From: an uncultured Clostridium sp.
GTDB lineage: Bacteria > Bacillota > Clostridia > Lachnospirales > Lachnospiraceae
Direction of reading: 5' to 3'
Assembly: GCA_947178445.1 (NCBI GenBank)
Contig: CAMWYJ010000002.1
Span: 96,479 to 160,478 of the forward strand
DNA: 64,000 nucleotides
Position 1 is the first letter of the stretch. Each line of letters opens with the position of its first letter. The position numbers and the translations under genes are program-made. The notes below the pieces were generated by a model. It had not been told where the DNA came from, searched no databases, and was given only the letters and a program-made list of their open reading frames with translations. Below are positions 23,110-54,170 of this stretch, in pieces.

Positions 23110-24819
23110 CTAATCCTCTGATGTGACGGTTCTCATCCACTCTTCCAGAGTCGTAACCTGCAGCCCTGGCACAATCGCACCACCTTCCGTTGCATCATAT
23201 ACCGGCATTACCACATCTTCTTTCTTTACCCGTTTTTCTATCCATTTGTTATATATAATAAATAAACGGCTTGTAGGAACCGTTCCTCCGCCTATTGCAG
23301 AAACCTGCTGCATATCTGCTGTTTCACCCGCCATCCTTCTCGCCGTTCCGGCAGCATGGGCTAGATTATCCGTATATGCCAGATCCAAACCGATAAATGC
23401 AATGGATTTGCTGTTTAAATAAATACATACATCCAAAGCGGTGGTGCTGACAGAACCACCTGTTTCATATAAATGCCACCCTTTTTTCGCCGCCAGCTCC
23501 TCTGCCCGGTCATATCCATTTTGACAAATCAAATATTTCTTTCCCTGATAGTTTTGGGAATACCCCTTATAGGCTGTTGCCAAATAAAGCATAGGAACCT
23601 GGCTATCCTCCAACCCTTTGATATGACTATATATCCGGCTATTGGCATCTGTTACAATCATATAATCTACATCAATTCCAAGGCTTAAAAGCTTTCGAAA
23701 TGCAGTTTCTACTGACAAAATAACCATATTCGGCTTTTTTTCTTTTAATAATTCCACATTTTTGTCCAGAGATGGTCCGGCTGCCACAATAACTACATCC
23801 TTTCCCTCAAAGCTCTCCCGAAGCCCATCTACATACCCATCATATTGCCTGAAATTCTCCCGGCTGTTACTCTCAAACAAAGCAGCAACATTACGTTTAC
23901 CACTGTCACGAATGAAAAACATTTCCATCTGTTCACGAATCCGTTCATCCTGAATATGACGCAGGGAAGGATGATGTATTATTAAATTTTCCTGAATGTT
24001 TGAAAGCGTACCAATAATTTTTTGGAAATCAGGATCATACACAATAGAAAATCCCGGTAAAGCAAGAAAATAAGACATATCTACAGCTGACAGACAATGG
24101 TAAATAATATCCAGGTCGTTTTCATAAACTGTCAGCACAAGCCCCTCATCCAGCAGCAGTAATTCCCTGACATGATAGCCCAGACCCATACCCCAGATTA
24201 CATAGTTTTCACTCCCCGCCCGATAATAATATCTTGCAAAATCCGCAGCCTCAGCCATTGGAGCTACATTGCTGTGATAGTAATACATTCCCTGTTCGTC
24301 CTGTCCCGACATAGTAAAGGCACCGGAATTCGTATCCTCTAAACGATGCATTCCCTGCCATGTACCTGCTTCACTTTCTTTCTCATAACGTTCATGATAA
24401 GCTTTTAGCTGTTTCCACAAAACAGCATCCTTTTTTTCCAGGGCAGCCATATTATTTATCCACACATTCGGATCTGTACAAATGACATCATAACTGCGAA
24501 TTACACTCTGCAAGGATTGTAAAAATGGAATCAACTGAAGTTCCAGCAAATCTGCCAATAAGACATAGTCCTGATTTTCCTGTGCACTCAGCATATCTTG
24601 CAAAGATGCGCCTACTCCCTCCTGGCTCACGAATTCCATATCCCGGTTATAATAAGTAAGATCGGAAAAGACAGCCTCCAACATCGGCATCATAGAACCC
24701 GTTACCTGACCAAAGAGCCTCACCACACAATCATAATTTTGTGTGTGGCAGGCATAAATAATTCTATGAATATGCTCCTGCAGTTGTGTACTGATGTTGT
24801 AAATCTGTTGTTTTGTCAT
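23110..24819 (-). CDS. Motility-associated factor (Maf) family glycosyltransferase (DUF115/MptE-like)
   Basis: Central VVIVAAGPSLDKN..DYMIVTDAN..GGSVSTTALD blocks typical of Maf nonulosonate transferases. ATG at 24819 overlaps the upstream stop (ATGA) and follows GGAGAAGGAGAAAA. Confidence 0.8.
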   Translation of the reverse strand: MTKQQIYNISTQLQEHIHRIIYACHTQNYDCVVRLFGQVTGSMMPMLEAVFSDLTYYNRDMEFVSQEGVGASLQDMLSAQENQDYVLLADLLELQLIPFLQSLQSVIRSYDVICTDPNVWINNMAALEKKDAVLWKQLKAYHERYEKESEAGTWQGMHRLEDTNSGAFTMSGQDEQGMYYYHSNVAPMAEAADFARYYYRAGSENYVIWGMGLGYHVRELLLLDEGLVLTVYENDLDIIYHCLSAVDMSYFLALPGFSIVYDPDFQKIIGTLSNIQENLIIHHPSLRHIQDERIREQMEMFFIRDSGKRNVAALFESNSRENFRQYDGYVDGLRESFEGKDVVIVAAGPSLDKNVELLKEKKPNMVILSVETAFRKLLSLGIDVDYMIVTDANSRIYSHIKGLEDSQVPMLYLATAYKGYSQNYQGKKYLICQNGYDRAEELAAKKGWHLYETGGSVSTTALDVCIYLNSKSIAFIGLDLAYTDNLAHAAGTARRMAGETADMQQVSAIGGGTVPTSRLFIIYNKWIEKRVKKEDVVMPVYDATEGGAIVPGLQVTTLEEWMRTVTSED

Positions 24820-27203
24820 TTTTCTCCTTCTCTCCACTTCTCAAACCCAAGTTCCATATTAATTGTAATATCTGTACTTTCCCACATTTCATCAGAGCCC
24901 TCTGTGGTTTCTCCGACAAACAAAAGCGTACTGATATCTCCATCCGCTCCCTCTGGCAGGCAATATGAATACACATTTTTGTTATTTCCCTTATTTATAA
25001 GGATTTTCTCTCCTGTATCCGGTGCCACCAAATAGATATTACAATCCTTCTTTACCCCTGTATCTGACACCTCATCCTTTACTGCCAGTTCAATACTCTT
25101 AATGTTTATCTTTACGTCAAACTCACTATTATTAACAAGTGTTATATCATCTGAGAATATCTGTTCACGGTTTAAAATCTGCTGGGGGTCAATATGTATT
25201 GTAAATTGCTGTGGCATAAATACAGATACCAGTTCTGGTTTTTCCACTGTAATGGTCTGCTCTTTTACCGATACATTACCTGCATGATCGGTAACCGTCA
25301 CCACAACATCATACTCCCCTTCTTCTGTAAACGGCAGAGAAAACTCGTATTTTGACGGAACCTCTATCCCTTTATCAATCACTACCTCCTCTAAAAGAGT
25401 GAGATCACTTATATCATAAGATTCTCCATTTACACTGCATTCCACCTTCTCAATACCTGAAATAATATGCCCCTTATCAGCCACATCAACCCATAAGGTA
25501 TATGGTGTAGTACAAATGGCATCCTGCGCCATGGAAATCTCCGGTGCACTCTGTTCCATCAAATAGTATTTGGATATCACATCTGAAGCATTGCCTGCTT
25601 TATCGGTGCAATTCATCAAAATTCTTCCATAAAAGTCATCTGCAATTTGAATCCCTGCCTCATTAAAATGGTCAACTACATATAAAAGCTTGTCACCATA
25701 CACATAACAAAGCTTATCAATACCAGTTCCCGGAGTTCCATCCAAATCATCATCACAAGCAATATTCAGCTTTGAGTCATTCGTGCAATAAATCGTCTTG
25801 TTATCACCCTGCAGTTTATTAAGTCCCTCCTCATCAAAGGTCAGCACTGGCGATACCGTGTCTTTTGAATAGGTAAAATCCACACCCGTCGTCACTTGGC
25901 TCCCATTTGAAAAATACAATGTTACCTTCTCATCTGCTGCATCCTTTGTAAGTGTTACCGCACTGCCAAACTCTCCATCTTCACCTATCCGCACCTGGTT
26001 AAATCCCTTTATTCCCGTCGGTTCAATTGTTATATCCCCTACAAATGCCTCCACATCTGTACGCATACTGCCCCTTACCGTAAAATAACCGGCATTTGCC
26101 ACAATCTTCTGCTCTGCCTCTTCCGATTCCTGTTCTTCCTCCCCAGACTGTACATCTTCTTCCTGTGCCAACGCCTCTTCCTGCTCTGTTTCTTCTGTAT
26201 CCGATGCGTTCTCCTGGTCTTCAGACACTCCTACATCATCTGCCTCTTCCTCAGAAGACGGCAGTTCCTCATTTGACTCACTCTTCCTGCCACCACTTAC
26301 TGTTTTCTTCACTGCTGTGCGGGCTTTTCGCTCATCTTCCGACAGGCTCTTTTCAATGGGAGATGTAGGAAGGATTGCATTCCAGATATTCTTCTGAAAC
26401 TGTATGCTGGCAGTTATCCGCTTGTCTTTTTCCGTATTGTCCTGTGTTTGCTCCTCACTATCCTCTGTATTCCGGATATCTTCCTCATCGTCCTGCGCCT
26501 GTCCCTCGCTATCCTCTGTATTCCGGGGATCTTCCTCACCATCTTCCATGTTCCGGTTACTTTCCTCATCATCTATATTCTGTGTCTGCTCTTCACTGTC
26601 TGCTACATCCTGAACATTTTTTCCATTATCCTTCTCAGGCCTCGTCTCAAATACATCATTTAACAGGTAATCCGCTTTTGTCTGCTTTCCATCATAATTA
26701 AAGTCGATGGCATATCCAATCTCTACCGGATATTGATAAAGTACTTTCTCTTCATTGCCCAAAGGCTTTATTCCATTGTTTCTATATAATGCCTGCACCT
26801 GTGAGAGCGGAACTGGATTTTCTACAACCGCATTTCTGTCACTGGTCTGCGCAGGAGACACAACATTTCTTTTTACGCTGCCTTTCTTACTGGATGTTTG
26901 TTCCTGCTGATCATAATCCGTCTTTTCTGCAGCTACCTCGGAATTATGAATTTCAATACTTGCCGTTGTATTCTTATTTGTCACTGTATTGTGTTTCTTC
27001 ACCGATGCTGTACTCATCATCTGTTCTTCCGGAATGGAATGTGTCACGCCACTTCCCAAAAGTGATATCATCAAGAGAAGTACCAGCGTACCAGCACAAA
27101 TACCCTCTGCCAGCCTCTTTTTCATTACAATTGATAATCTTCTATTCAATGTCGCAAAAAATACATATATATATACGAATATCCGGGCAATTTTTTCACG
27201 CAT
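24816..27203 (-). CDS. Large membrane-anchored surface protein with an acidic repeat region and Ig-like C-terminal domains
   Basis: 795 aa with a TM near the N-terminus, an about 250-aa D/E/S/T-rich tract with 17-aa repeats (RNTEDSE.Q.QDDEEDI) and beta-rich modules (e.g. VVVTVTDHAGNVS). SD GGGAGGA lies before 27203. Confidence 0.7.
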   Translation of the reverse strand: MREKIARIFVYIYVFFATLNRRLSIVMKKRLAEGICAGTLVLLLMISLLGSGVTHSIPEEQMMSTASVKKHNTVTNKNTTASIEIHNSEVAAEKTDYDQQEQTSSKKGSVKRNVVSPAQTSDRNAVVENPVPLSQVQALYRNNGIKPLGNEEKVLYQYPVEIGYAIDFNYDGKQTKADYLLNDVFETRPEKDNGKNVQDVADSEEQTQNIDDEESNRNMEDGEEDPRNTEDSEGQAQDDEEDIRNTEDSEEQTQDNTEKDKRITASIQFQKNIWNAILPTSPIEKSLSEDERKARTAVKKTVSGGRKSESNEELPSSEEEADDVGVSEDQENASDTEETEQEEALAQEEDVQSGEEEQESEEAEQKIVANAGYFTVRGSMRTDVEAFVGDITIEPTGIKGFNQVRIGEDGEFGSAVTLTKDAADEKVTLYFSNGSQVTTGVDFTYSKDTVSPVLTFDEEGLNKLQGDNKTIYCTNDSKLNIACDDDLDGTPGTGIDKLCYVYGDKLLYVVDHFNEAGIQIADDFYGRILMNCTDKAGNASDVISKYYLMEQSAPEISMAQDAICTTPYTLWVDVADKGHIISGIEKVECSVNGESYDISDLTLLEEVVIDKGIEVPSKYEFSLPFTEEGEYDVVVTVTDHAGNVSVKEQTITVEKPELVSVFMPQQFTIHIDPQQILNREQIFSDDITLVNNSEFDVKINIKSIELAVKDEVSDTGVKKDCNIYLVAPDTGEKILINKGNNKNVYSYCLPEGADGDISTLLFVGETTEGSDEMWESTDITINMELGFEKWREGEK
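26450..26600 (-). repeat. In-frame 51-bp tandem repeat (about 3 units) encoding the acidic RNTEDSE repeat
   Basis: CTATCCTCTGTATTCCGG recurs at 26458 and 26509 (51-nt period), followed by a third degenerate unit. Confidence 0.6.
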
Positions 27204-29164: not shown

Positions 29165-29192
29165 TTAAAAAAGGGCTGCATAACAGCCCTTT
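29165..29192 (-). terminator. Rho-independent terminator after the flagellin gene
   Basis: Minus strand GGGCTG-TTAT-GCAGCCC followed by TTTTTT. Confidence 0.8.
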
Positions 29193-29214
29193 TCCCACTT
29201 ACATTTCTTTTCCG

Positions 29215-29967
29215 TTAATTCACCTGAATAATCTTTCTTTTCTGTTCCTCTTCTTGCATTCGTTTCTTCTGCATCTTAAGCTGTACCTGTTCTAAAATCT
29301 GATTCTTATACAAGTCGCTCATTTCTTTTGCCATATCGGTATCCCGAAGAGAACTAAATGTAGACTCCAGATTATATGACGTGTTCTGATTATTCATAAC
29401 CGTGTATGCCAGACGGTTCGACTGTGCCCCGATAGAAGACTGTGCCGATGTAACTTTCTTAAGTGCATTATCAATATCCCGAATATCAAACTTCTTTGTC
29501 ACATCAAAATCCGCAATTCCAAGCTCTTCTAAGGTTACATTCACAAGCTCCATCTCATGTCCCACTCCAGATGGGTTCGTTGCTAACTCCATCGTTGCCA
29601 TACTGCCATCTAAGAGCTTTAATCCATTAAACTGGGTATCCCTTGCAATACTTGTGATTCCCTTCTTGATCTGGTCAATCTCTGCCTGCATCATGGAAAG
29701 TTCGTCTTTGGAGTAGATTGCCGAATTAGATGCCTGCAATCCCAATTCCCGGATTCTGCTTAGGGAATCATACATAGAAGACAATGCACCATCTGCTACA
29801 TTTAAAACGCTATTGCCCTTCTCTGCATTCTCAGTTCCGATGTCATAACCGTTCTTCTGGCTCTTAATCTTCTCTGAAATAGATAATCCAGCCGCATCAT
29901 CCGCTGCACTGTTAATCTTATAACCACTGGATAAATTGTGGTAATTCTTATCAATACTAAGCGACAT
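29215..29967 (-). CDS. Flagellin-family protein, short and atypical (truncated N-terminal D0, divergent C-terminus)
   Basis: LSSGYKINSAADDAAGLSISEKIK and ..SIGAQSNRLAYT..LRDTDMAKEMSDLYKNQIL are flagellin N and C signatures. ATG at 29967 follows GAAGGAGG. In-frame stops prevent any N-terminal extension. Confidence 0.8.
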   Translation of the reverse strand: MSLSIDKNYHNLSSGYKINSAADDAAGLSISEKIKSQKNGYDIGTENAEKGNSVLNVADGALSSMYDSLSRIRELGLQASNSAIYSKDELSMMQAEIDQIKKGITSIARDTQFNGLKLLDGSMATMELATNPSGVGHEMELVNVTLEELGIADFDVTKKFDIRDIDNALKKVTSAQSSIGAQSNRLAYTVMNNQNTSYNLESTFSSLRDTDMAKEMSDLYKNQILEQVQLKMQKKRMQEEEQKRKIIQVN

Positions 29968-30152
29968 AGCTACACCTCCTTCTATGATTTGCCAAAACAT
30001 TTATTAAAGATATTTTAACATATCTTAAATCAATCATCAATCGAAAAATTCGGGAAAACAATTTATAATGCTTCTATTACAATCATATGCTGCAGCAGGT
30101 TGCTACTCTACCGCCAAAAAGAAAATCTTGAGGGAGTCGTCTGTTTTATACT

Positions 30153-41444: not shown

Positions 41445-42584
41445 TTACATTTTCAATTGTTTTTCAACAATTTCGATTGTTTGCTCTACCACATAATCTA
41501 CCTGTTCCTCTGTCATACCTGCAAATAACGGAAGCGTAATCGCTCTGTCATAGAACTCCTCTGCATTCGGACAACAGACATCCTGATAACCATGTGTTTG
41601 ATAATATGGATGTTTATATACTGGAATATAATGTACATTTACTCCAATCCCAATTCTTCGCAGTTCCTCAAATACATTCTTCCTGATTGCTGCTGGAACC
41701 TGAACCATATATAGATGGTAGCTGCTTAAACAGTCCGGATGCTGGTAGGGTGTAACAATATTGGAATTACCTGCAAATCCTCTGTCATACCTGTCCGCTA
41801 ACTCTCTTCTATGTTTCGCAAAAGCGTCCAGCTTCTTCATCTGGGAAATCCCCAACGCACATTGGATATCGGTGATGCGGTAATTATATCCTAGTGCTAA
41901 CTGTTCATAATACCACGGACCATCATGGTTTTCTAAAAATTTCTCTTCTCTTGTAATTCCATGTGTATGATATAGTTTTAACTTCTCATACAAATCCTTA
42001 TCATTCGTTGTTACCATTCCGCCTTCTCCAGTTGTTACCGGCTTCACTGGATGAAAACTAAAGGTTGTCATATCGGATATGGTGCCAATTTTTCTTCCTT
42101 TATACTCACCACTAATAACCTGGGCACCATCCTCAATTACAATTAAATGATGCTTTTTTGCTATTTCAGTAATGGCATCCATTTCACAAGGCTGACCTGT
42201 GTAGTGAACAGGAATAATTGCTTTCGTCTTTGAAGTAATTTTACGTTCTATATCCTCTGGGTCAATATTATAAGTATCCTTCTTAATATCCGCAAATACT
42301 GGAGTTCCCCCACAATAAAGGACACAATTTGCTGACGCCGCAAAAGTAATTGGAGATGTAATCACTTCGTCACCCTGTCCGATTCCCGCTGCCAGACAGG
42401 CAATATGGAGTGCTGCTGTTCCATTTGATACGGCTACCGCATATTTAGCCCCTACATAATCTGCCACTATCTGCTCAAATTCAGCCACCTTTGGCCCCGT
42501 TGTAAGATAGTCGGAACGCAGTACATCCACAACCGCTTGTATATCTTCTTCATCTACTAATTGTCTTCCATATGGTATGAACAT
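41445..42584 (-). CDS. pseC: UDP-4-amino-4,6-dideoxy-N-acetyl-beta-L-altrosamine transaminase
   Basis: IPYGRQLVDEEDIQAVVDVLRSDYLTTGPKV start and a DegT-type PLP block (SFHPVKPVTTGEGG) are characteristic of PseC. Confidence 0.85.
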   Translation of the reverse strand: MFIPYGRQLVDEEDIQAVVDVLRSDYLTTGPKVAEFEQIVADYVGAKYAVAVSNGTAALHIACLAAGIGQGDEVITSPITFAASANCVLYCGGTPVFADIKKDTYNIDPEDIERKITSKTKAIIPVHYTGQPCEMDAITEIAKKHHLIVIEDGAQVISGEYKGRKIGTISDMTTFSFHPVKPVTTGEGGMVTTNDKDLYEKLKLYHTHGITREEKFLENHDGPWYYEQLALGYNYRITDIQCALGISQMKKLDAFAKHRRELADRYDRGFAGNSNIVTPYQHPDCLSSYHLYMVQVPAAIRKNVFEELRRIGIGVNVHYIPVYKHPYYQTHGYQDVCCPNAEEFYDRAITLPLFAGMTEEQVDYVVEQTIEIVEKQLKM

Positions 42585-42611
42585 ATATGCTTTCCTCCAT
42601 CTATATATAAC

Positions 42612-43940
42612 CTATCTCTTCTTCTTAAATCTGTCACCATAAAATGTCTCTGTTGTCAATCTGTATGAAACCGGTCTTTTATATGATTCCAAATTTTCTT
42701 TACAATATTTTCTTAATTGTTTGATATAATCCCTGTTATTATTTTTATCTTCTACACAAATATTGGCAATAACACTTTGTCCTGTAATTGGATTTGCCTC
42801 ACCATAAACATATACATCTTTCACTCCATCAAAAGATAATAAAACACTTTCTATCTCATTTGGATATACTTTTTCTCCGCCTACATTTATTAAATCTGTA
42901 GTTCGACCCAATATTTTAAGATAATCCCCTTTTACCTCAACCTTGTCCTTTGTATTAAACCAGCCCTCTTCATCAAATGGAGATGGGGCATTCAGGTAAC
43001 CTATCATTGCGGATCTGGCTTTTATATATAAAATATCATCTTCTATTTTTGTTTCGTATCCCATGCCGCCTATTTTCATCCAAAGAGAATCTGAACTTTC
43101 CGACTTCGTAGACATAATGCCAATTTCTGATAAGCCATAAGTTTGTTTTAATCTCACATCTGGCAGAATTTTATGCAATTGCTTTAACGTCGACTCCGGC
43201 ATTGGTTCTGTACCATATGATATCATCTTAAGGCTGGATAAATCATATTTCTCATAAACTCTGCTCAAAAGAATCATATTGATAAATGTCGGTGATGTCG
43301 GTAAAAGCTCTATATCATACTTCTCAATAATTCCACACACTTCTTCGGGACTTCTGGTTTTCAAGGTAGCAATCATACACCCGCTTGACAATGAATGCAT
43401 GATTGTATTAAATCCACCTATATGATCAAACAGCAAAAATGTAACTGTACGTAAACATTTTCCCGGCTGATTAAATTTTTCTATTAAATAAGTTAAATCA
43501 TGCAACGCTGCTTTTGGCTCTCCAGTTGTTCCAGATGAAAATAGTATTAACCCCGGAGCTTTTTTTTCAATCAAGCCACGCAGCATTTCATGTTTCACTT
43601 CATAGTCAGTTTTCCTAATCTCTATATCCTCTTGCAAATTGATGACATATTGACTTTCAGAAATTCTAATATAATTCTCTTTTCCTTTAATCGTTTTCGA
43701 TATAGGAACGATGATAACATCACGCTCTATTAAAGCAACCAAAAACGCAATTGACACAGGTGTAAACTCTGCTATAATAGAAACAACATTTCCTGAAGAA
43801 ATATTGTTCTCCTCCAATAACTTTGTAACCTTTTGATATTCCTCATAAATATCTCCAAAAGTATATTCTTTATTATCTGAAACTACAGCCAGTTTGTCCT
43901 TGTTCTCTCTTAATCGATCTAATATATAATCTATCTTCAT
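42612..43940 (-). CDS. AMP-dependent adenylating enzyme (acyl/aminoacyl-carrier-protein ligase-like)
   Basis: AMP-binding signature LFSSGTTGEPKA, YGLSE and GEKVYPNEIE. 442 aa (short C-domain). ATGA overlap with the upstream SDR. Confidence 0.82.
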   Translation of the reverse strand: MKIDYILDRLRENKDKLAVVSDNKEYTFGDIYEEYQKVTKLLEENNISSGNVVSIIAEFTPVSIAFLVALIERDVIIVPISKTIKGKENYIRISESQYVINLQEDIEIRKTDYEVKHEMLRGLIEKKAPGLILFSSGTTGEPKAALHDLTYLIEKFNQPGKCLRTVTFLLFDHIGGFNTIMHSLSSGCMIATLKTRSPEEVCGIIEKYDIELLPTSPTFINMILLSRVYEKYDLSSLKMISYGTEPMPESTLKQLHKILPDVRLKQTYGLSEIGIMSTKSESSDSLWMKIGGMGYETKIEDDILYIKARSAMIGYLNAPSPFDEEGWFNTKDKVEVKGDYLKILGRTTDLINVGGEKVYPNEIESVLLSFDGVKDVYVYGEANPITGQSVIANICVEDKNNNRDYIKQLRKYCKENLESYKRPVSYRLTTETFYGDRFKKKR

Positions 43941-44632
43941 CGATTCACCCCTCCTAAATATATAATCTGCCCTGTTATAAAGTCACTGCTAGGATTTAGG
44001 TAAAAGTCAATTACATTGATTATATCCTTAAACTCACCAAAACGATGAATTGCCTGGTTATCTAACAACTTATTCAATTTCTCTTCTGGTACTTTTGCAA
44101 TCAAATCTGTTTTTATTGGAGTTGGTCCTACAGCATTAACTGTAATACGAAACATTGCCAATTCTTTAGCCAATATTTTGGTCATGCTTTCAACTGCCGC
44201 TTTAGAAGAAGAATAGGCCATTTCTCCCTCTAAATTAAATGGTACTGCTACTGTTGAAAAATTAACAACTCTTGGATGCTCAGATTTCTTAAGCAAAGAG
44301 GCAAATGCTCGGATGCAAATCAGTCCTCCAAGATAATTGACCTCCATCAAATGCTTTGCAGTCTCGATAGGGGTCATCATAAAATGATTCATTGCTGCTA
44401 TTCCCGCATTGTTAATCAAAACGTCAACAAATTTGTAGTCTCTACGTACCTGCTTTGCAAAATCATTCACTTGCTTTTCATCACATACATCTACAACAAA
44501 ATGCCTGTACTGATCATGCACAATTTGACTTTCATGACGACTACACCCTATAACGGTATGCCCTTTCTCAAGATAATACTGAGCAATATTATATCCAATT
44601 CCTTTATGTGTACCTGTAATCACAATATTCAT
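43937..44632 (-). CDS. SDR-family oxidoreductase
   Basis: VITGTHKGIG cofactor motif, NNAG, YSSSKAA catalytic motif. Confidence 0.85.
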   Translation of the reverse strand: MNIVITGTHKGIGYNIAQYYLEKGHTVIGCSRHESQIVHDQYRHFVVDVCDEKQVNDFAKQVRRDYKFVDVLINNAGIAAMNHFMMTPIETAKHLMEVNYLGGLICIRAFASLLKKSEHPRVVNFSTVAVPFNLEGEMAYSSSKAAVESMTKILAKELAMFRITVNAVGPTPIKTDLIAKVPEEKLNKLLDNQAIHRFGEFKDIINVIDFYLNPSSDFITGQIIYLGGVNR

Positions 44633-44634
44633 TA

Positions 44635-44925
44635 TTATTCTACTTCCTTTATAAGTTCAGCAATAAATTCCTCTAATGTCTCAAATGAATAGAACGGACT
44701 TCTTTCTCTTGAAAAAGCCTTATCTGACACAATCCTTATATCCTTATCCAATTCATCTGAAATCCGTTCTTCAATAATCGTAATAAACGTAACAAACTCC
44801 ATAGAATCAATAGCGGCCTTTTTTCCTATCAACCTGACATCTTCGGAATATACCAGCTGTCTATCGTCATCCAATTGCTCATTTAATTCCTCAATAGAAT
44901 CCATTATAATCTCTTTAACCGTCAT
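44635..44925 (-). CDS. Carrier protein (ACP/PCP-like)
   Basis: 96 aa and acidic, with an IDSMEFVTFI Ser motif. Abuts the SDR and adenylase genes. Confidence 0.6.
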   Translation of the reverse strand: MTVKEIIMDSIEELNEQLDDDRQLVYSEDVRLIGKKAAIDSMEFVTFITIIEERISDELDKDIRIVSDKAFSRERSPFYSFETLEEFIAELIKEVE

Positions 44926-44964
44926 ACTCTTAACTCCTTACATACATATAATCACTTCACTCAC

Positions 44965-45366
44965 TTATGACTCTTTAATAAACTTTAGAAATTCATCGTA
45001 ATCTCTTATATAATCTTCTTCCTTATATACTTCGGAAGCCAAACACATTAGTACCGCATCTGCAGAAAAATCATACATTTCTCTCCACATATTATTAGGT
45101 ACATATAAGCCTTCATATGGCTTTTCCAGAAAAACTTTTTTCTTTTCTCTTCCGTTGTCCAATAATATCTTGCATGAACCATGAATACATATTAATATCT
45201 GCTCTAAAGTTTTATGTGCATGATATCCCCGAACTACACCTTCACCCGTATCATACATATAATAAACTCGTTTAATTTCAAAAGGAATATCATTAAATTC
45301 CTCTAAAGCAACAAGCTGTCCTCTCTCATCACCATGCTGCTGAAATTGATATTTTATAATCTGCAT
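44965..45366 (-). CDS. FdtA/WxcM-like cupin (sugar 3,4-ketoisomerase family)
   Basis: HGDERGQLVALE..PFEIKRVYYMYD..RGYHAHK..Q is the WxcM/FdtA signature. Confidence 0.78.
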   Translation of the reverse strand: MQIIKYQFQQHGDERGQLVALEEFNDIPFEIKRVYYMYDTGEGVVRGYHAHKTLEQILICIHGSCKILLDNGREKKKVFLEKPYEGLYVPNNMWREMYDFSADAVLMCLASEVYKEEDYIRDYDEFLKFIKES

Positions 45367-45434
45367 CTCATCTTCCTCTCTCTGCTAAAATTACTATCAA
45401 TCTTCCTATTTTTCATTCGATTTAACTCCTGTGT

Positions 45435-46523
45435 CTAAAAATTGTTAATTACTCTAATAACTTGTTTTATTTCATCTTCTGACATTCCTACCCATAATGG
45501 TAGAGACAATTCAGATTCTGCTATATACTCAGAAACAGGAAAGTCGCCCCTTTTATAATTCAAATCTTTATATGCCTCCTGCAAATGAACAGGTATCGGA
45601 TAATGAATCTGTGTCATAATGCCATTCTTCTGCAAATATTCCTGTAATTGTTGGCGTTCATCACAAAAAACTGTAAAAACATGCCACACATTATCCTTTT
45701 CTGAATACTGAGGTAACTTCAGCTTTGGATTATGAATATGCTCTATATACATCTGCGCAATTCTGCATCTCTCCAAATTCCAAGCCTCCAAACAAGCAAG
45801 CTTAACTCTCAAAACTGCTGCCTGTATCTCGTCCATACGGGAATTAAATCCTGCATAAATATGATGATACTTTTTCATGGAACCATAATTGCGTAATGCT
45901 TTCGCTTTATTATATAGATTCTCATCATTGGTTGTAATGGCTCCTGCATCTCCCAATGCGCCAAGATTCTTACCTGGGTAAAAACTAAATCCCGCAGCAT
46001 CTCCAACTGATCCTGCCATTTGGTTGTCCCTCACTGCACCATGTGCCTGCGCAGCATCTTCTATTACAATTAAATTGTATCTTCTTGACACCTCATTAAT
46101 TGCATCCATATCTGCCATTCTTCCATACAGATGCACTGCAATAACTGCCTTTGTACGCTCTGTTATTTTTTCTTCAATTAACCCGGGATCCATATTACAG
46201 GTATCTTCACATACATCTACCAACACAGGGGTCGCCCCTGCATAAGACACCGCTAATGCAGTTGCAATAAAAGTATTGGCCGGAACAAGTACTTCATCAC
46301 CCTTTCCTATCCCATATGCCTCTAAAATAATATGTAATGCATCTAACCCATTACCAACACCTAAACAATACCTGACTCCTATATAATCAGCATACTCCTT
46401 TTCAAATCTTTCCAGCTCTTCACCGAGAATATACCAGCTATTATCCAAAACAGAATTAATTGCCTGATTCATTTTCTGTCGAATGGGTGCATTGAGTTTT
46501 TCTAAGTTCAAATACGGTATCAT
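45435..46523 (-). CDS. DegT/DnrJ/EryC1-family sugar aminotransferase (FdtB-like)
   Basis: [13 protein letters not shown] start (ATG at 46523) and the PLP-lysine block [15 protein letters not shown]. Confidence 0.85.
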
Positions 46524-46527
46524 AAAA

Positions 46528-47340
46528 TCACTCTCCCATCCACATCGGCAAAAAATGTATAATACCATCTATGGCATCTTTATACTTCTTACATTTTAAT
46601 AATTCCTTTAATTGTGCATAAAAGAAAAACTTCCCTCTACTCTTTAAAAAAGATGAGTTATTTGATGTCCATAAGGATGTGCTGGAAATTCTATACCGTA
46701 CCAGCGTTTCATCTAACAGCACCACCTCATTTCCACTTACAATATAATTAAATAAAAACGGATAATCATCCAACATTGGATATCGAATATCGAATCCGCC
46801 AATCCCTTTAATATATTCTGTCAAATAAAAGTTACTTGCCGGTCCTGCTATAATATTCTCTATAATAATATTGTCATACTGCTCCTGCCATCCCATTTTA
46901 ATAATCTTATAACCTTTTTCAAAATACCGTTTCATTTCATTCACACGGGCGATATTGGAACCAAATGGCTCTACCTTGCAAAATACAGCATTTAGTGACT
47001 TCTCTTTTGCAAAATAATATTTTTTTTCAATTGCCTGCTCCAATAAAATATCATCTCCCGCTATTATCTGGATATATTTCCCCTGTGCCTGCCATATACC
47101 AATATTGCAATTCTTTGTCACTCCATGATTCTGTTTTGCTGAAAGTAATCTTGACTTCTCAAATCTTTTAGAGTTTGTCCGTAACCATTCTTTTACGATT
47201 TCAACCGTATTATCTGTTGAATGATCATCTGATACAATCAATTCCAAATTTTCATATGTTTGATTTTTGATACTTTCCAATGTTTCAATAATGGTTTTAC
47301 ATGAATTATATGTAACAACCACTACGCTAATAAGCTCCAC
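46528..47340 (-). CDS. Family 2 glycosyltransferase
   Basis: [28 protein letters not shown] motifs. Confidence 0.85.
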
Positions 47341-47370
47341 TCATATCACCTGCCATTGTATAAAATTTCC

Positions 47371-47874
47371 CTATATTTCAAATACAACCTCTTCCAAAGA
47401 AATTACTGTAGTTTTTGTTTTCTTAGATAACAGCTCTTTTATCTCATCATATGCGAAAGTTGCTGTTACAACAATCACATCGACTGTTTCTATTTCATCA
47501 TCTATTGTAATCATTTTAAGTTCCGGATCAGTACAAACCGCATTTTGATCAATTGCATATCTTACCTCAATATTAGTCTGTTTTAAATCCTCATATAACC
47601 GGCTGCCCATTCCGCCCATTCCATATATGGCAATCGTTTTATATCCATTTCGTATAAAATATTCTTCCAATGACCGACCTTCCTGCTTTATTGCCATCCA
47701 TTGATTCAGCATATTATAATAACCCCTAAATTTATCAACATCCTTATTGGCAGTCTCTGCCAATTTTTTCACTGCTATTCCCATTATTGCTACACCACCA
47801 ATGAAACCTGCTGCTAATGATACTCCAAATCCCTTTTTCACTATTGATTTCCTCCTCTTTATCTTCTTTTCCAA
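47371..47874 (-). CDS. Membrane-anchored protein with a Rossmann-like domain, unknown function
   Basis: N-terminal TM, then TIAIYGMGGMGSRLYEDL. Similar in style to the N-terminus of the 630-aa protein at 58184-60076. Confidence 0.5.
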   Translation of the reverse strand: MEKKIKRRKSIVKKGFGVSLAAGFIGGVAIMGIAVKKLAETANKDVDKFRGYYNMLNQWMAIKQEGRSLEEYFIRNGYKTIAIYGMGGMGSRLYEDLKQTNIEVRYAIDQNAVCTDPELKMITIDDEIETVDVIVVTATFAYDEIKELLSKKTKTTVISLEEVVFEI

Positions 47875-48831
47875 TTATACTACTACAGTTCCGTACACAA
47901 TCCCACAAGAAAGCCCAACACCAAATCCACACAGTAATACCCTGTTTTTCCCATCCTGAAGCAATTCAGAGTTCACAGTAAGTGTTACCGGAATAGAAGC
48001 GCCAGCTGTATTACCATACTCTCCGTAAGATGTCAGTACTTTATCTCTATTCAGGCCACAAAAATCTGCTACATTGTCCACAATATACTTTTGTGCCTGA
48101 TGAAATACATAATAATCAATATCTTCATCCGTAAGCTTCGCCCGTTCCATAAATTCCTTCACATAGCCCACAACCTGACTAATTGTATAATGAAACACTT
48201 CCATACCATCCATGTGAAAATAATCGTTATGATCTTTCATAAATATTTTATCATACTTCTGTCCCATAGATTTCTGCATATAGAATATCTTATTATCTGG
48301 TACAACCTCAAGACCGGTTGCTGTTCCTGCGTCACTAAACATCATCTTTGACTGGATATCATCCTCTTTCAGGCATTGTGTTACCGTGTCTCCTACCAAC
48401 AAAAGCATCTTACTTCCTAATTCCATACTGGCCAACAGACTACTCACAATATGTAATCCTACTGTATATCCAGAACATCCCAGATTCACATCAAATACAA
48501 TACAGTTTTCCCCAATATCAAGCCGCTTCTGAATAATAAAGGCTGTTGACGGCATGACACAACTTGGAGTCTGCGTAATTAAAATAATTCCTCTAATCTC
48601 GTCTTTACTCCATTGTAATCTTGCAAGCAGACGCTTTGCAGCTTCCACACACATATCCTCAGCGGACTCGTCGTCTTCTGCCACGTAACACGATTGAATA
48701 CCTGTAAGTTTTATCTGACTTGCCACTTTACGCTCACCAAGCTGTTTATTATATTCACAATTATCAATTTTTCTTTTCGGAACTACTGTCTCAATTCCCC
48801 GGATTGCTATATTGTTATACTCGCTAAACAT
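47875..48831 (-). CDS. KASIII (FabH)-like 3-oxoacyl-ACP synthase/acyltransferase
   Basis: Cys-His-Asn triad contexts LGCSGY, VFHQAQ and YGNTAGASIP. Confidence 0.8.
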   Translation of the reverse strand: MFSEYNNIAIRGIETVVPKRKIDNCEYNKQLGERKVASQIKLTGIQSCYVAEDDESAEDMCVEAAKRLLARLQWSKDEIRGIILITQTPSCVMPSTAFIIQKRLDIGENCIVFDVNLGCSGYTVGLHIVSSLLASMELGSKMLLLVGDTVTQCLKEDDIQSKMMFSDAGTATGLEVVPDNKIFYMQKSMGQKYDKIFMKDHNDYFHMDGMEVFHYTISQVVGYVKEFMERAKLTDEDIDYYVFHQAQKYIVDNVADFCGLNRDKVLTSYGEYGNTAGASIPVTLTVNSELLQDGKNRVLLCGFGVGLSCGIVYGTVVV

Positions 48832-48875
48832 ATTTCACTCTCCGATTTTTCTTCCTATCCATCTACATTTCCTAT

Positions 48876-49622
48876 TTAGTATTCTATACCACCACTGACT
48901 ACAACTAATTCACCAGTCATAAATTTTGCATTATCTGATAATAAAAACTCTGCCAGATATGCTATTTGTTCTGCTTCTATAATTCCCAAAGGCTGCCATG
49001 TCTGTGCTGATTCCAGATAATTCTCAATCTCCTGAACTCCAACCATCAACATTGTCGTTTTTACACAGGCGGGAAGAATTGCATTCACTCGAATCTTTCT
49101 CCTCATAAATTCCTTTGACATCGTTTTGACTACAGAATTTACCGCTGCTTTTGAGGCCGAATACTGTGACTGACCTTTGCTATTAAGCACGGATGCAATA
49201 GAAGAAATTGCAACCAGGGAACTTCCGTCATTAGAATATTTTTTCATGGAAAAATACTTACCTAATTCAAACAATGCAAAACAATTTATTCTCATTGCCT
49301 GTTCCATTTCTTCAATATTATTTGTTTTTATCACACTAGTAAATGTAACACCGGCACAATGCACTAATCCATCTAACTTTAAGCTGTTTTCTTTACAATA
49401 GCGGAATATATCTTCCATATTTTCCAAATCCATTAAATCATATGAAAACGGAAAAATATGGTCAGGATTTTCCTGATGCAGCTTTTCCAGCCGCTCCTTA
49501 TTCCTTGCAACTGCTACAATCTTTGCCCCTGCCATGACCAACTGTTTCGTTATCGCCTCTCCAATGCCTGAAGTTGCTCCAGTCACTAATATTATTTTGC
49601 TGTCCATATTTGTATCTAACAT
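48876..49622 (-). CDS. SDR-family ketoreductase (FabG-like)
   Basis: VTGATSGIGEA and YSASKAA motifs. Confidence 0.85.
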   Translation of the reverse strand: MLDTNMDSKIILVTGATSGIGEAITKQLVMAGAKIVAVARNKERLEKLHQENPDHIFPFSYDLMDLENMEDIFRYCKENSLKLDGLVHCAGVTFTSVIKTNNIEEMEQAMRINCFALFELGKYFSMKKYSNDGSSLVAISSIASVLNSKGQSQYSASKAAVNSVVKTMSKEFMRRKIRVNAILPACVKTTMLMVGVQEIENYLESAQTWQPLGIIEAEQIAYLAEFLLSDNAKFMTGELVVVSGGIEY

Positions 49623-49692
49623 ATCACATTCCCCATTCTATCATCCACATATAACGCAGTCCTCATTGGCATTGACAAATGCCTATACTTCT

Positions 49693-50709
49693 TTAATATG
49701 AATAGATCCGATCCGTCTCTAACATTTTCAAACACATATTGCTATCAATGCTCATATATACTGCACTCCATGCCAGTCCCACTCCAAATCCACACATTAA
49801 TACCCTTGCTCCATCCACAAATTTATCTTGATTAATACACATTGTTAATGGAATAGATGCACTGGAAGTATTACCATAATCCTTATAGGAAACCAGCATC
49901 TTTTCGTCAGGAATATTCATTATATCTTTCATATTATCTAAAATCATTTTCTGAGCCTGATGAAAAACATAATAGTCAATATCTTCATCCGTTATATGTA
50001 TATCACTCATAAACTTCTGAATGCTATCCACCACATCATTAATTGCAAATGAAAAAACAGCATCCCCTTTCATCCTTGGCAACTGTCCAAACGCTTTGCT
50101 AATATCCATACAACCTTCTGCATTTACATATTGCATACCATATATCTTGGGTGCATCAGATTTTTCTATGGCAGTCGCAGATATAGCAGACCCAAACAGC
50201 AGCCAGTCAGAGATATGTTCCTCCCATTCTCCATTTTGCTTCCATTCAGGATTATATTTACAAAGATCTCCCGCCAGCAGGATTGCTCTGTCTCCAGTAT
50301 TCTGCAGCAAATTCGCTATCGTCTGAATCCCCGTTGTATAACCTGAACAGCCCAGATTAATATCAAATACTGTCATTTCTTTTTTAAAATGAAAGGCTTT
50401 GTGTACAAACATGGCCGTAGCAGGTAAAAACATGTCCTGAGATTGTGTGACTAATATGAGAATATCTATACTATCCGCACTCCAGCCTGTTTCATCCAAA
50501 AGCTGCCGGACTGCTTCAATTGCCAAATCAGAGGTTTTTTGTTCTCCCCAAATTACTCTTCTTCGTTCAATACCAGTGAGTTTAACATGTCTTTTAAGCT
50601 TCTTTTCACCCATAATCTCTGCATATTGAGCTTGGTTACATTCCTCCTCACATTCAGGTACCGCTGTTACAATCCCTTTAATTGCAATATCATCAAATAC
50701 AGTTAACAT
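49693..50709 (-). CDS. KASIII (FabH)-like 3-oxoacyl-ACP synthase/acyltransferase, second paralogue
   Basis: LGCSGY, VFHQAQ and YGNTSSASIP triad contexts. Confidence 0.8.
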   Translation of the reverse strand: MLTVFDDIAIKGIVTAVPECEEECNQAQYAEIMGEKKLKRHVKLTGIERRRVIWGEQKTSDLAIEAVRQLLDETGWSADSIDILILVTQSQDMFLPATAMFVHKAFHFKKEMTVFDINLGCSGYTTGIQTIANLLQNTGDRAILLAGDLCKYNPEWKQNGEWEEHISDWLLFGSAISATAIEKSDAPKIYGMQYVNAEGCMDISKAFGQLPRMKGDAVFSFAINDVVDSIQKFMSDIHITDEDIDYYVFHQAQKMILDNMKDIMNIPDEKMLVSYKDYGNTSSASIPLTMCINQDKFVDGARVLMCGFGVGLAWSAVYMSIDSNMCLKMLETDRIYSY

Positions 50710-50724
50710 GAAAACTATCCACCT

Positions 50725-50943
50725 TTACTCTAAATAATCACAAATATCCTTTACTGTCTGGAAACTCTTTAATTCCTCCACTGTAATGGACTTGTTGTAT
50801 AACTTTTTAATAGTGGCCATCAAAGATAATTTTGTAAGAGAATCCCATTCCTCAACATCCTCCAGATTTGCGTTGATATCTAATTCTCCCTCATCCAACT
50901 CCATTAAGTCCTCCAACAATACAATCTTTTCCTCTGTCGTCAT
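50725..50943 (-). CDS. Acyl carrier protein
   Basis: 72 aa and acidic, with an EWDSLTKLSL attachment motif. Confidence 0.8.
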   Translation of the reverse strand: MTTEEKIVLLEDLMELDEGELDINANLEDVEEWDSLTKLSLMATIKKLYNKSITVEELKSFQTVKDICDYLE

Positions 50944-51050
50944 AATAAATTCCTCGCTTTCTTATATTCTTCCATTTGACAAAACATCTCTATTAAATAA
51001 GCCAATGGATTATTTTAATATTTCTTTTCAATAGCACACCATAATATGCG

Positions 51051-51632
51051 TTATAGTACCAGCATATCTTCTAACGATTCTTCATCAATAAAGCTCCTCG
51101 CTATCTTTGCTATTCTACTGTTCTCATCCCACATCCGTAAAGGATAACTAAACTGGTACACATCATGTTTTACTCCATCTAATATCACATGATCTTTTAG
51201 AATTTTCTCTACTGTACCACCCATCCGGATCTGCATGTTCAATGCATCTTTATTGGTGTCAACAACCTCTGCACATATTTTCTCCACCTTCAAACATGTA
51301 TATTCAATGACACCAATCATATAATACATGATTGTTCCATATCCCATCATCTGATAAGTTTCATCAATCAAATAATTTCCATTCGTCACCGTATGCTCTT
51401 TTGGATTCACTTCATATTGAAACACACCAAATGGTTCATTATCTAAGAAAAAAACAAATAACCCTCTATTTGGATCCATTTTCAATTTATCTATATATTT
51501 TCTATGTTCCTCCTCTGTAATAATATGTGTTTGGAACATATTTCTACGGACAAATTCCTGATTTCTCCATATACGGATATCCGCTATTGTTTTCTCATCC
51601 AATCTATTCAACTCCACTGCTCTGAACTTCAT
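51051..51632 (-). CDS. pseH: GNAT acetyltransferase, PseH-like
   Basis: ATG at 51632 (MKFRAVEL) follows GGGGGGAG. IRIWRNQEFVRRNMFQTHIITEEEHRKYIDKL resembles the PseH N-terminal pattern. Lies directly downstream of pseI. Confidence 0.65.
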   Translation of the reverse strand: MKFRAVELNRLDEKTIADIRIWRNQEFVRRNMFQTHIITEEEHRKYIDKLKMDPNRGLFVFFLDNEPFGVFQYEVNPKEHTVTNGNYLIDETYQMMGYGTIMYYMIGVIEYTCLKVEKICAEVVDTNKDALNMQIRMGGTVEKILKDHVILDGVKHDVYQFSYPLRMWDENSRIAKIARSFIDEESLEDMLVL

Positions 51633-51646
51633 AGCTCCCCCCACTC

Positions 51647-52696
51647 TTATTCTACCATATTCCACGACAAGGGAGTGCCTTTTTTTAAGTCTGTACGGGC
51701 AGTACTTCCCAATATTTTATCGTAATACATCGTATGCAGCCCCTTTCCCGGACGAATCGACTTTATATTATCTGGTGTAAATTTTTCTCCTTTTTTCATA
51801 TCTTTTACTACGTACAAAGAGCGTGTTCCATTGCGGGCACCTTTCTGATTATCCGTTAACTCAAAGGTAGTTTTTCCCAGTGCGTCTTCCAAATTGCGAA
51901 TCTGCCGAATCATATCTGTAAATTCCTCTATTTCCATAGAAAATGCAGCATCCGGTCCTCCATCCTCCCTTTTGATTGTAACATGCTTTTCTATTATCTT
52001 TGCACCCAAGGCAACCGCCCCCAATGCAACTTCACTACCCAACGTATGGTCTGATAATCCTACCATACAATCAAATGTATTCTTCATCAATGGTATCGCC
52101 TTTAAATTCATATCCCCATAAGGACATGGATAAGCCGAAGTGCATTTCAGTAAAACGACATTTTCATTTCCCTCTTCCTTACAAACTGCTAAGGCTCTTT
52201 CTATATCCTCCAAATAAGCCGTACCTGTCGATATAATAACCGGTTTCCCTGTTCTGGCAATCCTTTGAAGCATCGGTATATCATTTATTTCATAAGATGC
52301 CACCTTAAATGCTGGCATGTTTATTTCACACATAAAATCAACTGCGGTCAAATCAAAGGGGGAAGAAAAACAGCTTAAGCCAAGACTATTCGCATATTTT
52401 ACTAAATCCTCCTGCCATTCCCACGGTGTATATGCTTTCTGATATAAACTATATAAAGTCTCTCCATCCCACAATCCACCATGTATTTGAAATTCAGGAT
52501 TATTACAATCTATTGTAATTGTATCTGCTGTATAGGTTTGCAGTTTCACTGCATCCGTACCAGAATCCTTTAACCGATATATAATTTCCTTTGCTCTATC
52601 AAAGCTCATCAAATGATTGGCTGACATTTCTGCAATAACATATACTGGTGAAGTCTCACTTATCATACGATTGTCAATGTGAATCTCTTTCTTCAA
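51647..52696 (-). CDS. pseI: Pseudaminic acid synthase (NeuB family with a SAF domain)
   Basis: IAEMSANH, KLQTY, VGLSDHT and C-terminal IRPG.GL SAF blocks. Its context with pseH, pseF, pseG, pseC and pseB argues for Pse rather than Neu or Leg. Confidence 0.85.
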   Translation of the reverse strand: MKKEIHIDNRMISETSPVYVIAEMSANHLMSFDRAKEIIYRLKDSGTDAVKLQTYTADTITIDCNNPEFQIHGGLWDGETLYSLYQKAYTPWEWQEDLVKYANSLGLSCFSSPFDLTAVDFMCEINMPAFKVASYEINDIPMLQRIARTGKPVIISTGTAYLEDIERALAVCKEEGNENVVLLKCTSAYPCPYGDMNLKAIPLMKNTFDCMVGLSDHTLGSEVALGAVALGAKIIEKHVTIKREDGGPDAAFSMEIEEFTDMIRQIRNLEDALGKTTFELTDNQKGARNGTRSLYVVKDMKKGEKFTPDNIKSIRPGKGLHTMYYDKILGSTARTDLKKGTPLSWNMVE

Positions 52697-52731
52697 CTAA
52701 ATGACCTCCCTGTTTCATAAAATTAAAATTT

Positions 52732-53412
52732 TTATGTAATCTCAAATCTATTAAGAATATTTTCTTTTCCATGTCCCGGAAAAACAATTGTATCTTTTGA
52801 AAGTCCTTCCAGAAATGGTTTTGTAATGAGCCGATACTCTTTTTTACTTCCTCCTGGCAATCTTGTAATAACGGCATTATCCGCTACAAGGCTATCTCCC
52901 GTAAACACATATTGTTCTTCCACCAATATACATATACTTCCTTTGGAATGACCTGGTGTTTCTATCAATTGAATATCTAGCCCCTGCCATTCAAAGCCAT
53001 ATCTTCCATCAAATCCGATATCTGCATAGCATGAATAATTTTCATCAAAAACTTCTTCCGCTATTCTTACTGTTTCTGCATCTTTGTCTATTAACAGGCT
53101 TTTAAAATATGCAGATAAATTTTTCAAAGGATCTGTTAAATATTCTTTTGCATGATTCCCACATAAAACAGTACAAGACCAATGCTCTCTAAAAAAATTC
53201 ACACCCGATATATGATCAAAATGTTCATGTGTCAATATGATCCATATTTCCTCAACTGTCTTCTGTTCCAAAAATTCTACCGCATCTTGACAAATATGAG
53301 GATCAATAATTAATGCAGATTTATTCTTAACGATTAAATACATATTAGAATTAATCGGTTCCAAAATATATTTATGTATTTCCAGTTCATTTACCTTGAA
53401 TTCACTTAACAT
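52732..53412 (-). CDS. MBL-fold metallo-hydrolase
   Basis: THEHFDH motif and downstream TPGHSKGS. Overlaps pseF by 11 nt. Confidence 0.8.
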   Translation of the reverse strand: MLSEFKVNELEIHKYILEPINSNMYLIVKNKSALIIDPHICQDAVEFLEQKTVEEIWIILTHEHFDHISGVNFFREHWSCTVLCGNHAKEYLTDPLKNLSAYFKSLLIDKDAETVRIAEEVFDENYSCYADIGFDGRYGFEWQGLDIQLIETPGHSKGSICILVEEQYVFTGDSLVADNAVITRLPGGSKKEYRLITKPFLEGLSKDTIVFPGHGKENILNRFEIT

Positions 53413-54109: not shown

Positions 54110-54170
54110 CCACCCTTTAAAACTATAGTCTTTCGGATTTTCCGGTTTTTATTTTCTGCAAATCTGATCA

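Follow-up and report, generated by a model that had tools for sequence, protein, structure and literature searches.

The locus described here raises the question of what a flagellin may do when the terminal helices that build the core of the filament have been reduced and rewritten. The gene lies on the minus strand, at positions 29215..29967 including the stop codon, of a 64,000-nucleotide stretch of DNA from an uncultured Clostridium sp. of the Lachnospiraceae (assembly GCA_947178445.1, contig CAMWYJ010000002.1, positions 96,479 to 160,478), hereafter called the window. It encodes a protein of 250 amino acids, the short flagellin, recognised as an open reading frame (ORF) with matches to Pfam Flagellin_N and Flagellin_C. 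A first-pass annotation had doubted that this protein forms filaments, had offered a decoy, a regulatory or secreted variant or a decaying gene as explanations, and had proposed to measure the truncation against the Pfam profiles, to survey the genome for flagellar genes and canonical flagellins, and to look for truncated homologues in relatives. Our analyses place the gene in a family for which the following picture is very likely correct: domain D1 is complete and D0 vestigial, the sequences are under strong purifying selection, the carriers checked also have canonical flagellins, with FlhA in all five that were tested, and the members are not the major filament subunit. The short flagellin is probably an accessory flagellin that does not form the filament core, and neither the main subunit nor a dying gene. 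The explanation that we favour as a whole, at a probability of roughly 40%, is that it is exported via the flagellar secretion system, probably in glycosylated form, and is unable to form the canonical inner tube.

The N-terminal truncation was confirmed. Read directly from the sequence, the ORF starts at ATG 29967 and ends with the stop codon at 29215-29217, and a Shine-Dalgarno sequence (AGGAGG; 29975..29980, minus strand) lies 7 nt 5′ of the ATG. The sole in-frame upstream start, ATG 30000, directly follows an in-frame TAA (30001-30003), so that at most 25 residues could precede the invariant Gly of the LSSG motif, and the codons from ATG 30000 overlap the ribosome-binding site. The reading frame, the ribosome-binding site and the upstream limit were thus as first annotated, and so was the beginning of the LSSG block at residue 12. 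The stated offset of 18 residues relative to Bacillus subtilis Hag also proved right, since residue 6 aligns with Hag residue 24 (PDB 5wjt and related entries). When start codons with the best Shine-Dalgarno sequence were used, 14 residues preceded the LSSG Gly in the window protein and 14-27 across 39 family loci. The same count is 32-36 for the 68 canonical flagellins compared, which were taken from Bacillota, Actinomycetota, Planctomycetota, Pseudomonadota, Bdellovibrionota and further phyla. Both ranges leave aside one sequence with a doubtful start choice. In more than 20 of the 39 family loci a full-length N-terminus is ruled out by an in-frame stop. What remains of N-terminal D0 (D0-N) in the window protein, residues 1-11 (MSLSIDKNYHN; 29935..29967, minus strand), is delimited by these counts, by alignment and by an AlphaFold2 model. 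In the family, this region is a Ser/Ile/Gly-rich peptide with the consensus MSISSISS..NY, in which Ser, Ile, Gly and Asn are frequent at residues 2-10.

Alignment to the Pfam profiles quantified the truncation at both ends. Residues 4-122 match Flagellin_N from profile position 20 to 137 of 139 (E 2e-28, 99.6 bits, cut-off 26.6) and residues 164-232 match Flagellin_C from position 3 to 71 of 86 (E 1.6e-13, 51.2 bits, cut-off 23). The protein therefore belongs to the flagellin superfamily (PF00669 and PF00700), with both profiles partly covered. Canonical short Bacillota flagellins share 39-40% identity with it, and its residues 7-236 align with residues 25-258 of the 270-aa filament flagellin of Roseburia hominis (9hpz). 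At the C-terminus its length is normal, with 14 residues past this alignment compared with 12 in 9hpz. The C-terminus had been described as a non-canonical stretch rich in Lys, Glu and Gln. The charged, foreign character of the sequence was confirmed, but it is not a random tail that replaces D0: it is a full-length C-terminal D0 (D0-C) helix with a conserved motif of its own. The recoded distal half of this helix comprises residues 225-250 (LEQVQLKMQKKRMQEEEQKRKIIQVN; 29218..29295, minus strand), identified by the family motif in the form LEQYRLxMQKK..EE..(L/I)(F/L/I) and by the proportions of nonsynonymous (pN) and synonymous (pS) differences. Half of the last 20 residues are charged in the window protein (50%), compared with medians of 35% in the family and 5% in the 68 canonical flagellins. 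Family-wide, the motif LEQYRLxMQKKxxEE..(L)(F/L) stands in place of the hydrophobic, near-universal LAQANQ..LSLL, which belongs to the canonical D0-C core pattern ..ML(A/S)QANQ..Q.(V/L)L.LL(R/Q/G), and canonical L256 A257 Q258 A259 N260 Q261, which are 88-100% conserved, have become Q-K-K-x-M-E.

Of the 88 positions that show a conservation of 85% or more in canonical flagellins, 43 are kept by the family and 45 are changed or lost, with a concentration in D0-N and in the LAQANQ block of D0-C. The N-terminal D0 positions and the whole L-A-Q-A-N-Q block are lost or changed, and substitutions in ND1a include Q74 to N, A62 to G and G149 to A. Retained are LSSGxxINxAxDDAAGLxI, the LQR..L of N-terminal D1, FNG..LL, the VS..R..GA..N of C-terminal D1, and N222, S228, D232 and D234. 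The body of D1 is complete: it comprises the spoke and the beginning of D1 (LSSGxxINxAxDDAAGL), the segment LQRIRELxxQ and the D1 loop. In established filament structures, the D0-N and D0-C helices wind around each other as an antiparallel coiled coil, and both build the inner tube in solved filaments. Because they pair, the deleted N-terminal and the recoded C-terminal residues would be partners, and both changes may represent one coherent loss of the distal half of D0.

The AlphaFold2 model of the short flagellin has a mean predicted local distance difference test score (pLDDT) above 80 over approximately residues 31-200, and the top Foldseek matches are flagellar filament structures, with a TM-score of 0.77 to 9hpz. 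The predicted N-terminal helix spans residues 5-13 (about 9 residues), compared with residues 2-31 (about 30) in the canonical 271-aa flagellin of the same genome, which served as a control. pLDDT falls below 50 at residues 1-19 and to 48-70 over residues 210-250. Since the canonical control was equally poor in D0, we considered low terminal pLDDT uninformative, dropped it as evidence and used only the helix lengths. None of the curated NCBIfam flagellin models reached its cut-off, the best being PRK12804 (Hag) with 152.9 bits against 352. An identity as FlgL was rejected, as TIGR02550 scored 97.1 bits, below its cut-off of 127.2.

The short flagellin is not a singular oddity. A protein search returned more than 100 clusters at 90% identity, of 248-263 aa and at 50-95% identity, all with the short N-terminus and an MQKK-type C-terminus. 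When a library of 1.84 billion representative proteins was searched by profile, the short-flagellin architecture accounted for about 85-90 clusters (50% identity) that ranked above the first canonical flagellins. The truncated homologues that the first-pass annotation had proposed to look for in relatives are therefore abundant, and 39 such loci were compared here. In a maximum-likelihood tree of flagellins built without FlaC, FlaE and FlaF, the family is set apart from the canonical flagellins by a stem that has 100/100 support and measures 0.88 substitutions per site, where the groups were defined by the C-terminal motif and the termini were included in the alignment. This stem exceeds the distances that separate canonical flagellins of different phyla. 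The ratio of nonsynonymous to synonymous substitution rates (dN/dS) was 0.04 at a dS of 0.70 in comparison with a 95%-identical orthologue and 0.03-0.08 in comparison with more distant ones. The tail is constrained as well, with a pN of 0.07-0.10 against a pS of 0.26-0.90 over the last 25 codons. The family is monophyletic and Lachnospiraceae-specific, and its strong purifying selection is well supported. Two members of the representative library, P0169 (458 aa) and P0177 (481 aa), combine the short N-terminus with a long central insert, which is Ala/Asn-rich in P0169; the C-terminus of P0169 is of the QKMRQEQQ type. As these proteins are long and nevertheless have the short N-terminus, it is the vestigial D0, and not small size, that marks the family.

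All named members stem from Lachnospiraceae-type genomes from rumen, mouse gut and human gut, nearly all of them metagenome-assembled; the mouse isolate ‘Clostridia bacterium B91_16_CH_BP’ (locus L042) seems to be a carrier in culture. Among 150 Lachnospiraceae genera sampled, 76 (77 in one count) had flagellin matches and about 19 carried the short family. Further flagellin matches were found in 18 of the 19 carriers in the first search, and a follow-up search revealed a canonical flagellin in the remaining one (G075). The host genome itself is fully flagellated: profile searches identified FlhA, two FliS genes, FliW, FlaG, FliD, FlgL and canonical flagellins, so that both the flagellar genes and the canonical flagellins sought after the first-pass annotation are present. 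FlhA lies on contig C11, and contig C14 carries a late-gene cluster with the 271-aa canonical flagellin, FliS, FliD, FlaG, FliW and FlgL. The same contig encodes a flagellin of 460 aa, similar to the FlaB-like class, in which 32 residues precede the LSSG Gly; its gene has a promoter of sigma-28-like type and is accompanied by the second FliS-like gene. This divergent gene (L001:44-511, on C14; Pfam FliS, E 1.1e-12) lies directly downstream and may encode a dedicated chaperone of the 460-aa flagellin.

The upstream regions also set the family apart. In a scan for consensus sequences only, the 220 nt that precede the short flagellin contained no CCGATA. We compared the family with 23 canonical flagellins of Lachnospiraceae and other Bacillota, in which CCGATA(T/A) typically occurs 13-15 nt after a TAAAGT-like -35 element and 110-170 nt upstream of the gene. 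The sigma-28-type -10 element CCGATA was present in 14 of the 23 canonical flagellins compared with one of the 39 family genes, and in that one it lacked a -35 element. Conversely, sigma-A matches of at least 10 of 12 bases were seen in 18 of the 39 family genes and in one of the 23 canonical flagellins. The family upstream regions thus look sigma-A-like and outside the sigma-28 promoter pattern. In the window, a consensus match to a sigma-A-type promoter is located at 30012..30040 on the minus strand (TTGATG, 17 nt spacer, TAAAAT, with an extended -10 TG in the form TG-n-TAAAAT), and a hairpin that resembles an intrinsic terminator (GGGAAAAGGGCUG-UUA-UGCAGCCCUUUUUU; 29165..29195, minus strand; -19.2 kcal/mol, z -4.1, as stable in 0 of 200 shuffles) directly follows the stop codon. 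These two putative signals suggest that the gene is monocistronic. With the translation and glycolysis genes of the genome as reference set, the codon adaptation index of the short flagellin was 0.649 (top 11.5%), compared with 0.744 (top 1.1%) for the 271-aa canonical flagellin. Values near that of the short flagellin were found for FlhA (top 10.0%), FliD (top 8.9%) and the 460-aa flagellin (top 13.8%). A self-trained version of the index was dropped because the iteration converged on AT-rich, probably mobile genes. The early doubt that this is a canonical filament-former is hence substantiated by the reduction of the D0-N helix from about 30 to about 9 residues, by the 45 of 88 altered positions and by the lower codon adaptation. 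Judged by its sequence, the protein departs from canonical flagellins in D0-N length, D0-C motif, scores against curated models and sigma-28 promoter.

The genomic neighbourhood links the gene to flagellin glycosylation. Four genes downstream of the short flagellin, at 23113..24837 on the minus strand, lies a gene for a Maf-type flagellin glycosyltransferase (MptE-like domain 1e-35, Maf_flag10_N 5e-08), whose product is likely to be an enzyme that modifies the short flagellin. On the other side lie nonulosonic-acid (pseudaminic/legionaminic-type) pathway genes of a flagellin glycosylation island (41448..57723, minus strand), among them a NeuB-family synthase (51650-52696), a PseB-like dehydratase (56743-57723) and two DegT aminotransferases (41448-42584 and 45438-46568). 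It had been stated that the window holds no other flagellar structural genes. Whole-genome profile searches indeed placed no flagellin, FliS, FliW, FlaG, FliD or FlhA family in the window besides the short gene itself, but the gene is not isolated, since it sits between the flagellin sugar pathway and Maf. In all five relatives of at least 65% identity that were examined, the short flagellin is also located within a flagellin glycosylation island, with Maf immediately beside it or nearby in three cases. In Clostridium botulinum, Maf glycosylates the D1 loop without a need for D0 (PMC11339370). The adjacent ABC pair was considered as a secretion route and rejected, because that neighbourhood is unique to this genome among the loci compared.

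How might such a protein act? In the explanation that we favour, the gene of the short flagellin would be transcribed alone, from a sigma-A-type promoter of its own, whereas the canonical flagellins mostly carry sigma-28-type promoters. The flagellar type III export apparatus could recognise it via the retained spoke and start of D1 together with the disordered N-terminus; in Salmonella FliC, the export signal lies in the corresponding segment. In the clade of the window, the D1 loop would probably be O-glycosylated by the neighbouring Maf. The protein would then leave the cell unable to form a canonical D0 inner tube and would be released or loosely associated with the filament, instead of being polymerised as core filament, in parallel to Campylobacter FlaC and the Vibrio flagellin-homologous proteins. 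Export is suggested by the retained spoke and start of D1, by the conserved, disordered Ser/Ile-rich N-terminus and by the glycosylation context.

Several observations weigh against this explanation. D0-C is the main contact of FliS on flagellin, and residues that match Hag Q297 and R304 matter for function (PMC6070490); as this region is recoded in the short flagellin, chaperone-dependent export may be impaired. By alignment, half of one FliW footprint (PMC6070490) is deleted. Sigma-A-type expression, uncoupled from hook completion, would be unusual for an export substrate and would also fit a cytoplasmic role; the promoter calls are themselves consensus matches only. The linkage to Maf and glycosylation is limited to the clade of the window, and in other clades the gene is found beside housekeeping genes or flaG. 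Furthermore, the surface of flagellin D1 is thought to be constrained by polymerisation, and the strong conservation of the D1 surface in the family would also fit a minor structural role.

Such a minor structural role is possible, albeit rather doubtful. Few copies of the protein would enter the filament, or it would occupy a special position, such as the hook-proximal end, the tip or an outer decoration; D1 contacts would hold it there in spite of the reduced D0, and it would be glycosylated like the other subunits. The high conservation of D1, including LQRIRELxxQ and FNGxxLLDG, which are common to filament-forming flagellins, agrees with this view, as do the best structural matches, which are filament flagellins, the location of the gene in flagellin glycosylation islands adjoining Maf and a codon adaptation that resembles those of FliD and FlhA. 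There are precedents for minor flagellins with a sigma factor unlike that of the major one in Campylobacter and Helicobacter (FlaB), in Caulobacter and in Shewanella. However, the two elements that build the inner tube are those that have been given up, with the D0-N helix nearly gone and the LAQANQ..LSLL core motif of D0-C converted to charged residues, and the stem of 0.88 substitutions per site indicates a functional shift. The loss of the polymerisation elements would be expected of a cytoplasmic regulator or decoy, a constitutive look-alike that stays unassembled and titrates FliW, FliS, the C-terminal part of FlhA (FlhA-C) or Maf, and that thereby tunes flagellin translation, export or filament length. 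We regard this as unlikely, although the promoter appears sigma-A-like and not sigma-28-like, with a short 5′ leader, and the FliW footprint is partly kept: Hag residues 50-72 and 240-260 correspond to residues 32-54 and 184-204 of the short flagellin (PMC6070490 and our alignment), and 60 of 62 members share N199. The gene stands immediately behind flaG in three genera, and FlaG competes with FliS-flagellin complexes for FlhA and so keeps filament length in check (PMC11536152). Against this view, the FliW footprint at the N-terminus (Hag 11-34) has been halved by the deletion, and D0-C is recoded where FliS makes contact. Moreover, a cytoplasmic decoy needs neither a conserved, disordered Ser/Ile/Gly-rich N-terminus nor a place in a glycosylation island, and stoichiometric titration would be costly.

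In a more daring version, to which we give still less weight, the family might serve the flagellar export and homeostasis machinery as a dedicated client that does not polymerise, constitutively expressed from sigma-A promoters, export-competent and polymerisation-incompetent. Such a client might occupy FliW, FliS or FlhA ahead of the late flagellins, its export serving as a sentinel signal of an open gate, or, alternatively, might compete with or cap growing filaments together with FlaG and thus set filament length. As a by-product, a monomeric, glycosylated, D0-poor flagellin that keeps the TLR5 epitope of D1 would be present in the gut as a naturally ‘silent’ ligand. That the gene is a decaying or non-functional remnant of a flagellin, as had been considered at first, is extremely improbable. 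The protein is truncated in comparison with the Pfam and NCBIfam models and scores under every NCBIfam equivalog cut-off, as a remnant might. Yet the frame is intact and equipped with a Shine-Dalgarno sequence, a promoter-like site and a terminator-like hairpin, dN/dS is 0.04 at a dS of 0.70 and stays at 0.03-0.08 in other comparisons, with the tail included, and the architecture recurs in about 85-90 clusters at 50% identity and in many Lachnospiraceae genera. We therefore reject decay.

The family belongs among the non-canonical flagellin paralogues, and comparison with known flagellins helps to define it. With the canonical short flagellins of Bacillota (B. subtilis Hag, 9hpz and the 271-aa protein of the same genome) it shares the D1 fold, the size class of about 250-300 aa without D2 or D3, the Pfam domains and the motifs LSSGxxINxAxDDAAGL, LQRxREL and FNGxxLL. 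Unlike them, it has 14-27 instead of 32-36 residues before the Gly, the charged MQKK..EE sequence, 45 of 88 conserved positions altered, a lower codon adaptation and a long branch. Campylobacter jejuni FlaC is exported through the flagellum and not assembled (PMC4863622; PMC5466977). Like FlaC, the short flagellin is a small flagellin homologue (about 250 aa) without D2/D3 that occurs in addition to structural flagellins, and by analogy the Lachnospiraceae protein could be secreted and unassembled in the same way. In contrast, FlaC has been described with D0-D1 domains and a need for FliS, whereas in the family D0-N is vestigial and the FliS-contact region is recoded. FlaC comes from a different phylum, and its likeness to the family is functional, without evidence of orthology. 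Vibrio FlaE and FlaF are described as expressed and excreted via the flagellin channel, as not being filament constituents and as acting extracellularly in the biofilm matrix (PMC6692518). The short family is likewise an extra flagellin paralogue; the Vibrio lineage is unrelated to it, and in the abstract and outline of that paper no terminal truncation of FlaE or FlaF is reported. A role of the Lachnospiraceae family in a biofilm matrix would be pure speculation. With the class of secreted homologues it has in common that it is an extra paralogue without D2/D3 in genomes that encode structural flagellins and an export apparatus. A parallel in the same bacterial family is found in the FlaB-like ‘silent’ flagellins (Clade 1) of R. 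hominis, of which little is detected in preparations of filaments (bioRxiv 10.1101/2025.07.18.665615; Clasen et al., bioRxiv 10.1101/2022.04.12.488020). These are also Lachnospiraceae paralogues with a divergent D0 and a retained TLR5 epitope in N-terminal D1 (nD1). The residue numbering of RhFlaB reaches at least 478, which makes it a long flagellin, and the preprint analyses the N-terminal D0 sequence of FlaB-like flagellins. We rejected an identity of the two groups, since the FlaB ‘silent’ proteins of R. hominis form a separate family of long flagellins; in the host genome, their likely counterpart is the 460-aa flagellin encoded on C14.

The flagellins of Lachnospiraceae are of major importance as immune antigens in the gut: antibodies are directed against them in Crohn's disease, and as ligands of TLR5 they are of the ‘silent’ type. 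Of the flagellated Lachnospiraceae genera in the sample, about a quarter carry a strongly selected paralogue that lacks the filament-core elements and the D0-dependent TLR5 elements while the D1 epitope is kept. D0 is required for TLR5 signalling, according to PMC5578693 and to Clasen et al. (bioRxiv 10.1101/2022.04.12.488020). Because the TLR5 segment of nD1 is kept and D0 is not, the short flagellins are predicted to bind TLR5 and to signal poorly. We found no description of the family in the literature searched, and in databases every member is named simply ‘flagellin’, so that pipelines that count flagellins would treat the members as ordinary subunits. If the proteins are exported unassembled, they would represent a Gram-positive counterpart of FlaC and the Vibrio flagellin-homologous proteins as well as a natural experiment on the need for D0 in export, chaperone binding and glycosylation. 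If they are regulatory, a new player in the control of flagellin homeostasis or filament length would be added.

Several further loci deserve mention. Three Lachnospiraceae genera (L020, L021 and L026) share the arrangement comEC-holA-flaG-short flagellin, in which 5-16 nt separate the last two genes. This suggests that in these genera the short flagellin may be co-transcribed with flaG, whose product regulates filament length, at a distance from the main flagellar loci. In the window, the next ORF upstream of the short flagellin (30153-30716, minus strand) encodes 187 aa and has no Pfam match; in tblastn against its own genome it matches itself only, and it did not cluster with neighbour proteins of 19 other family loci. 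A FliD_C-like gene of about 430 aa adjoins the rplJ-rplL/nusG ribosomal cluster in the host genome (C21:46590-47891, outside the window) and in two further loci (L006:9014-10312 and L018:8808-10160). It exists in addition to the 659-aa FliD of the flagellar cluster and is convergent to the short flagellin in two loci. It was rejected as a specific partner, because it occurs in 55 of 150 Lachnospiraceae genomes, mostly in those without a short flagellin. Two very long proteins, P0123 (1101 aa) and P0185 (1086 aa), were likewise rejected as members: each contains two flagellin units, with an HExxH (flagellinolysin/collagenase-like) insert in one protein and a VWA domain in the other, and they may be fused gene calls or real tandem flagellins. 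Finally, the major 271-aa flagellin of the host genome is located at a contig end (C14:234-1091), and a 93%-identical copy of 274 aa (P0310) was also found, which suggests a tandem flagellin pair that was cut by the assembly.

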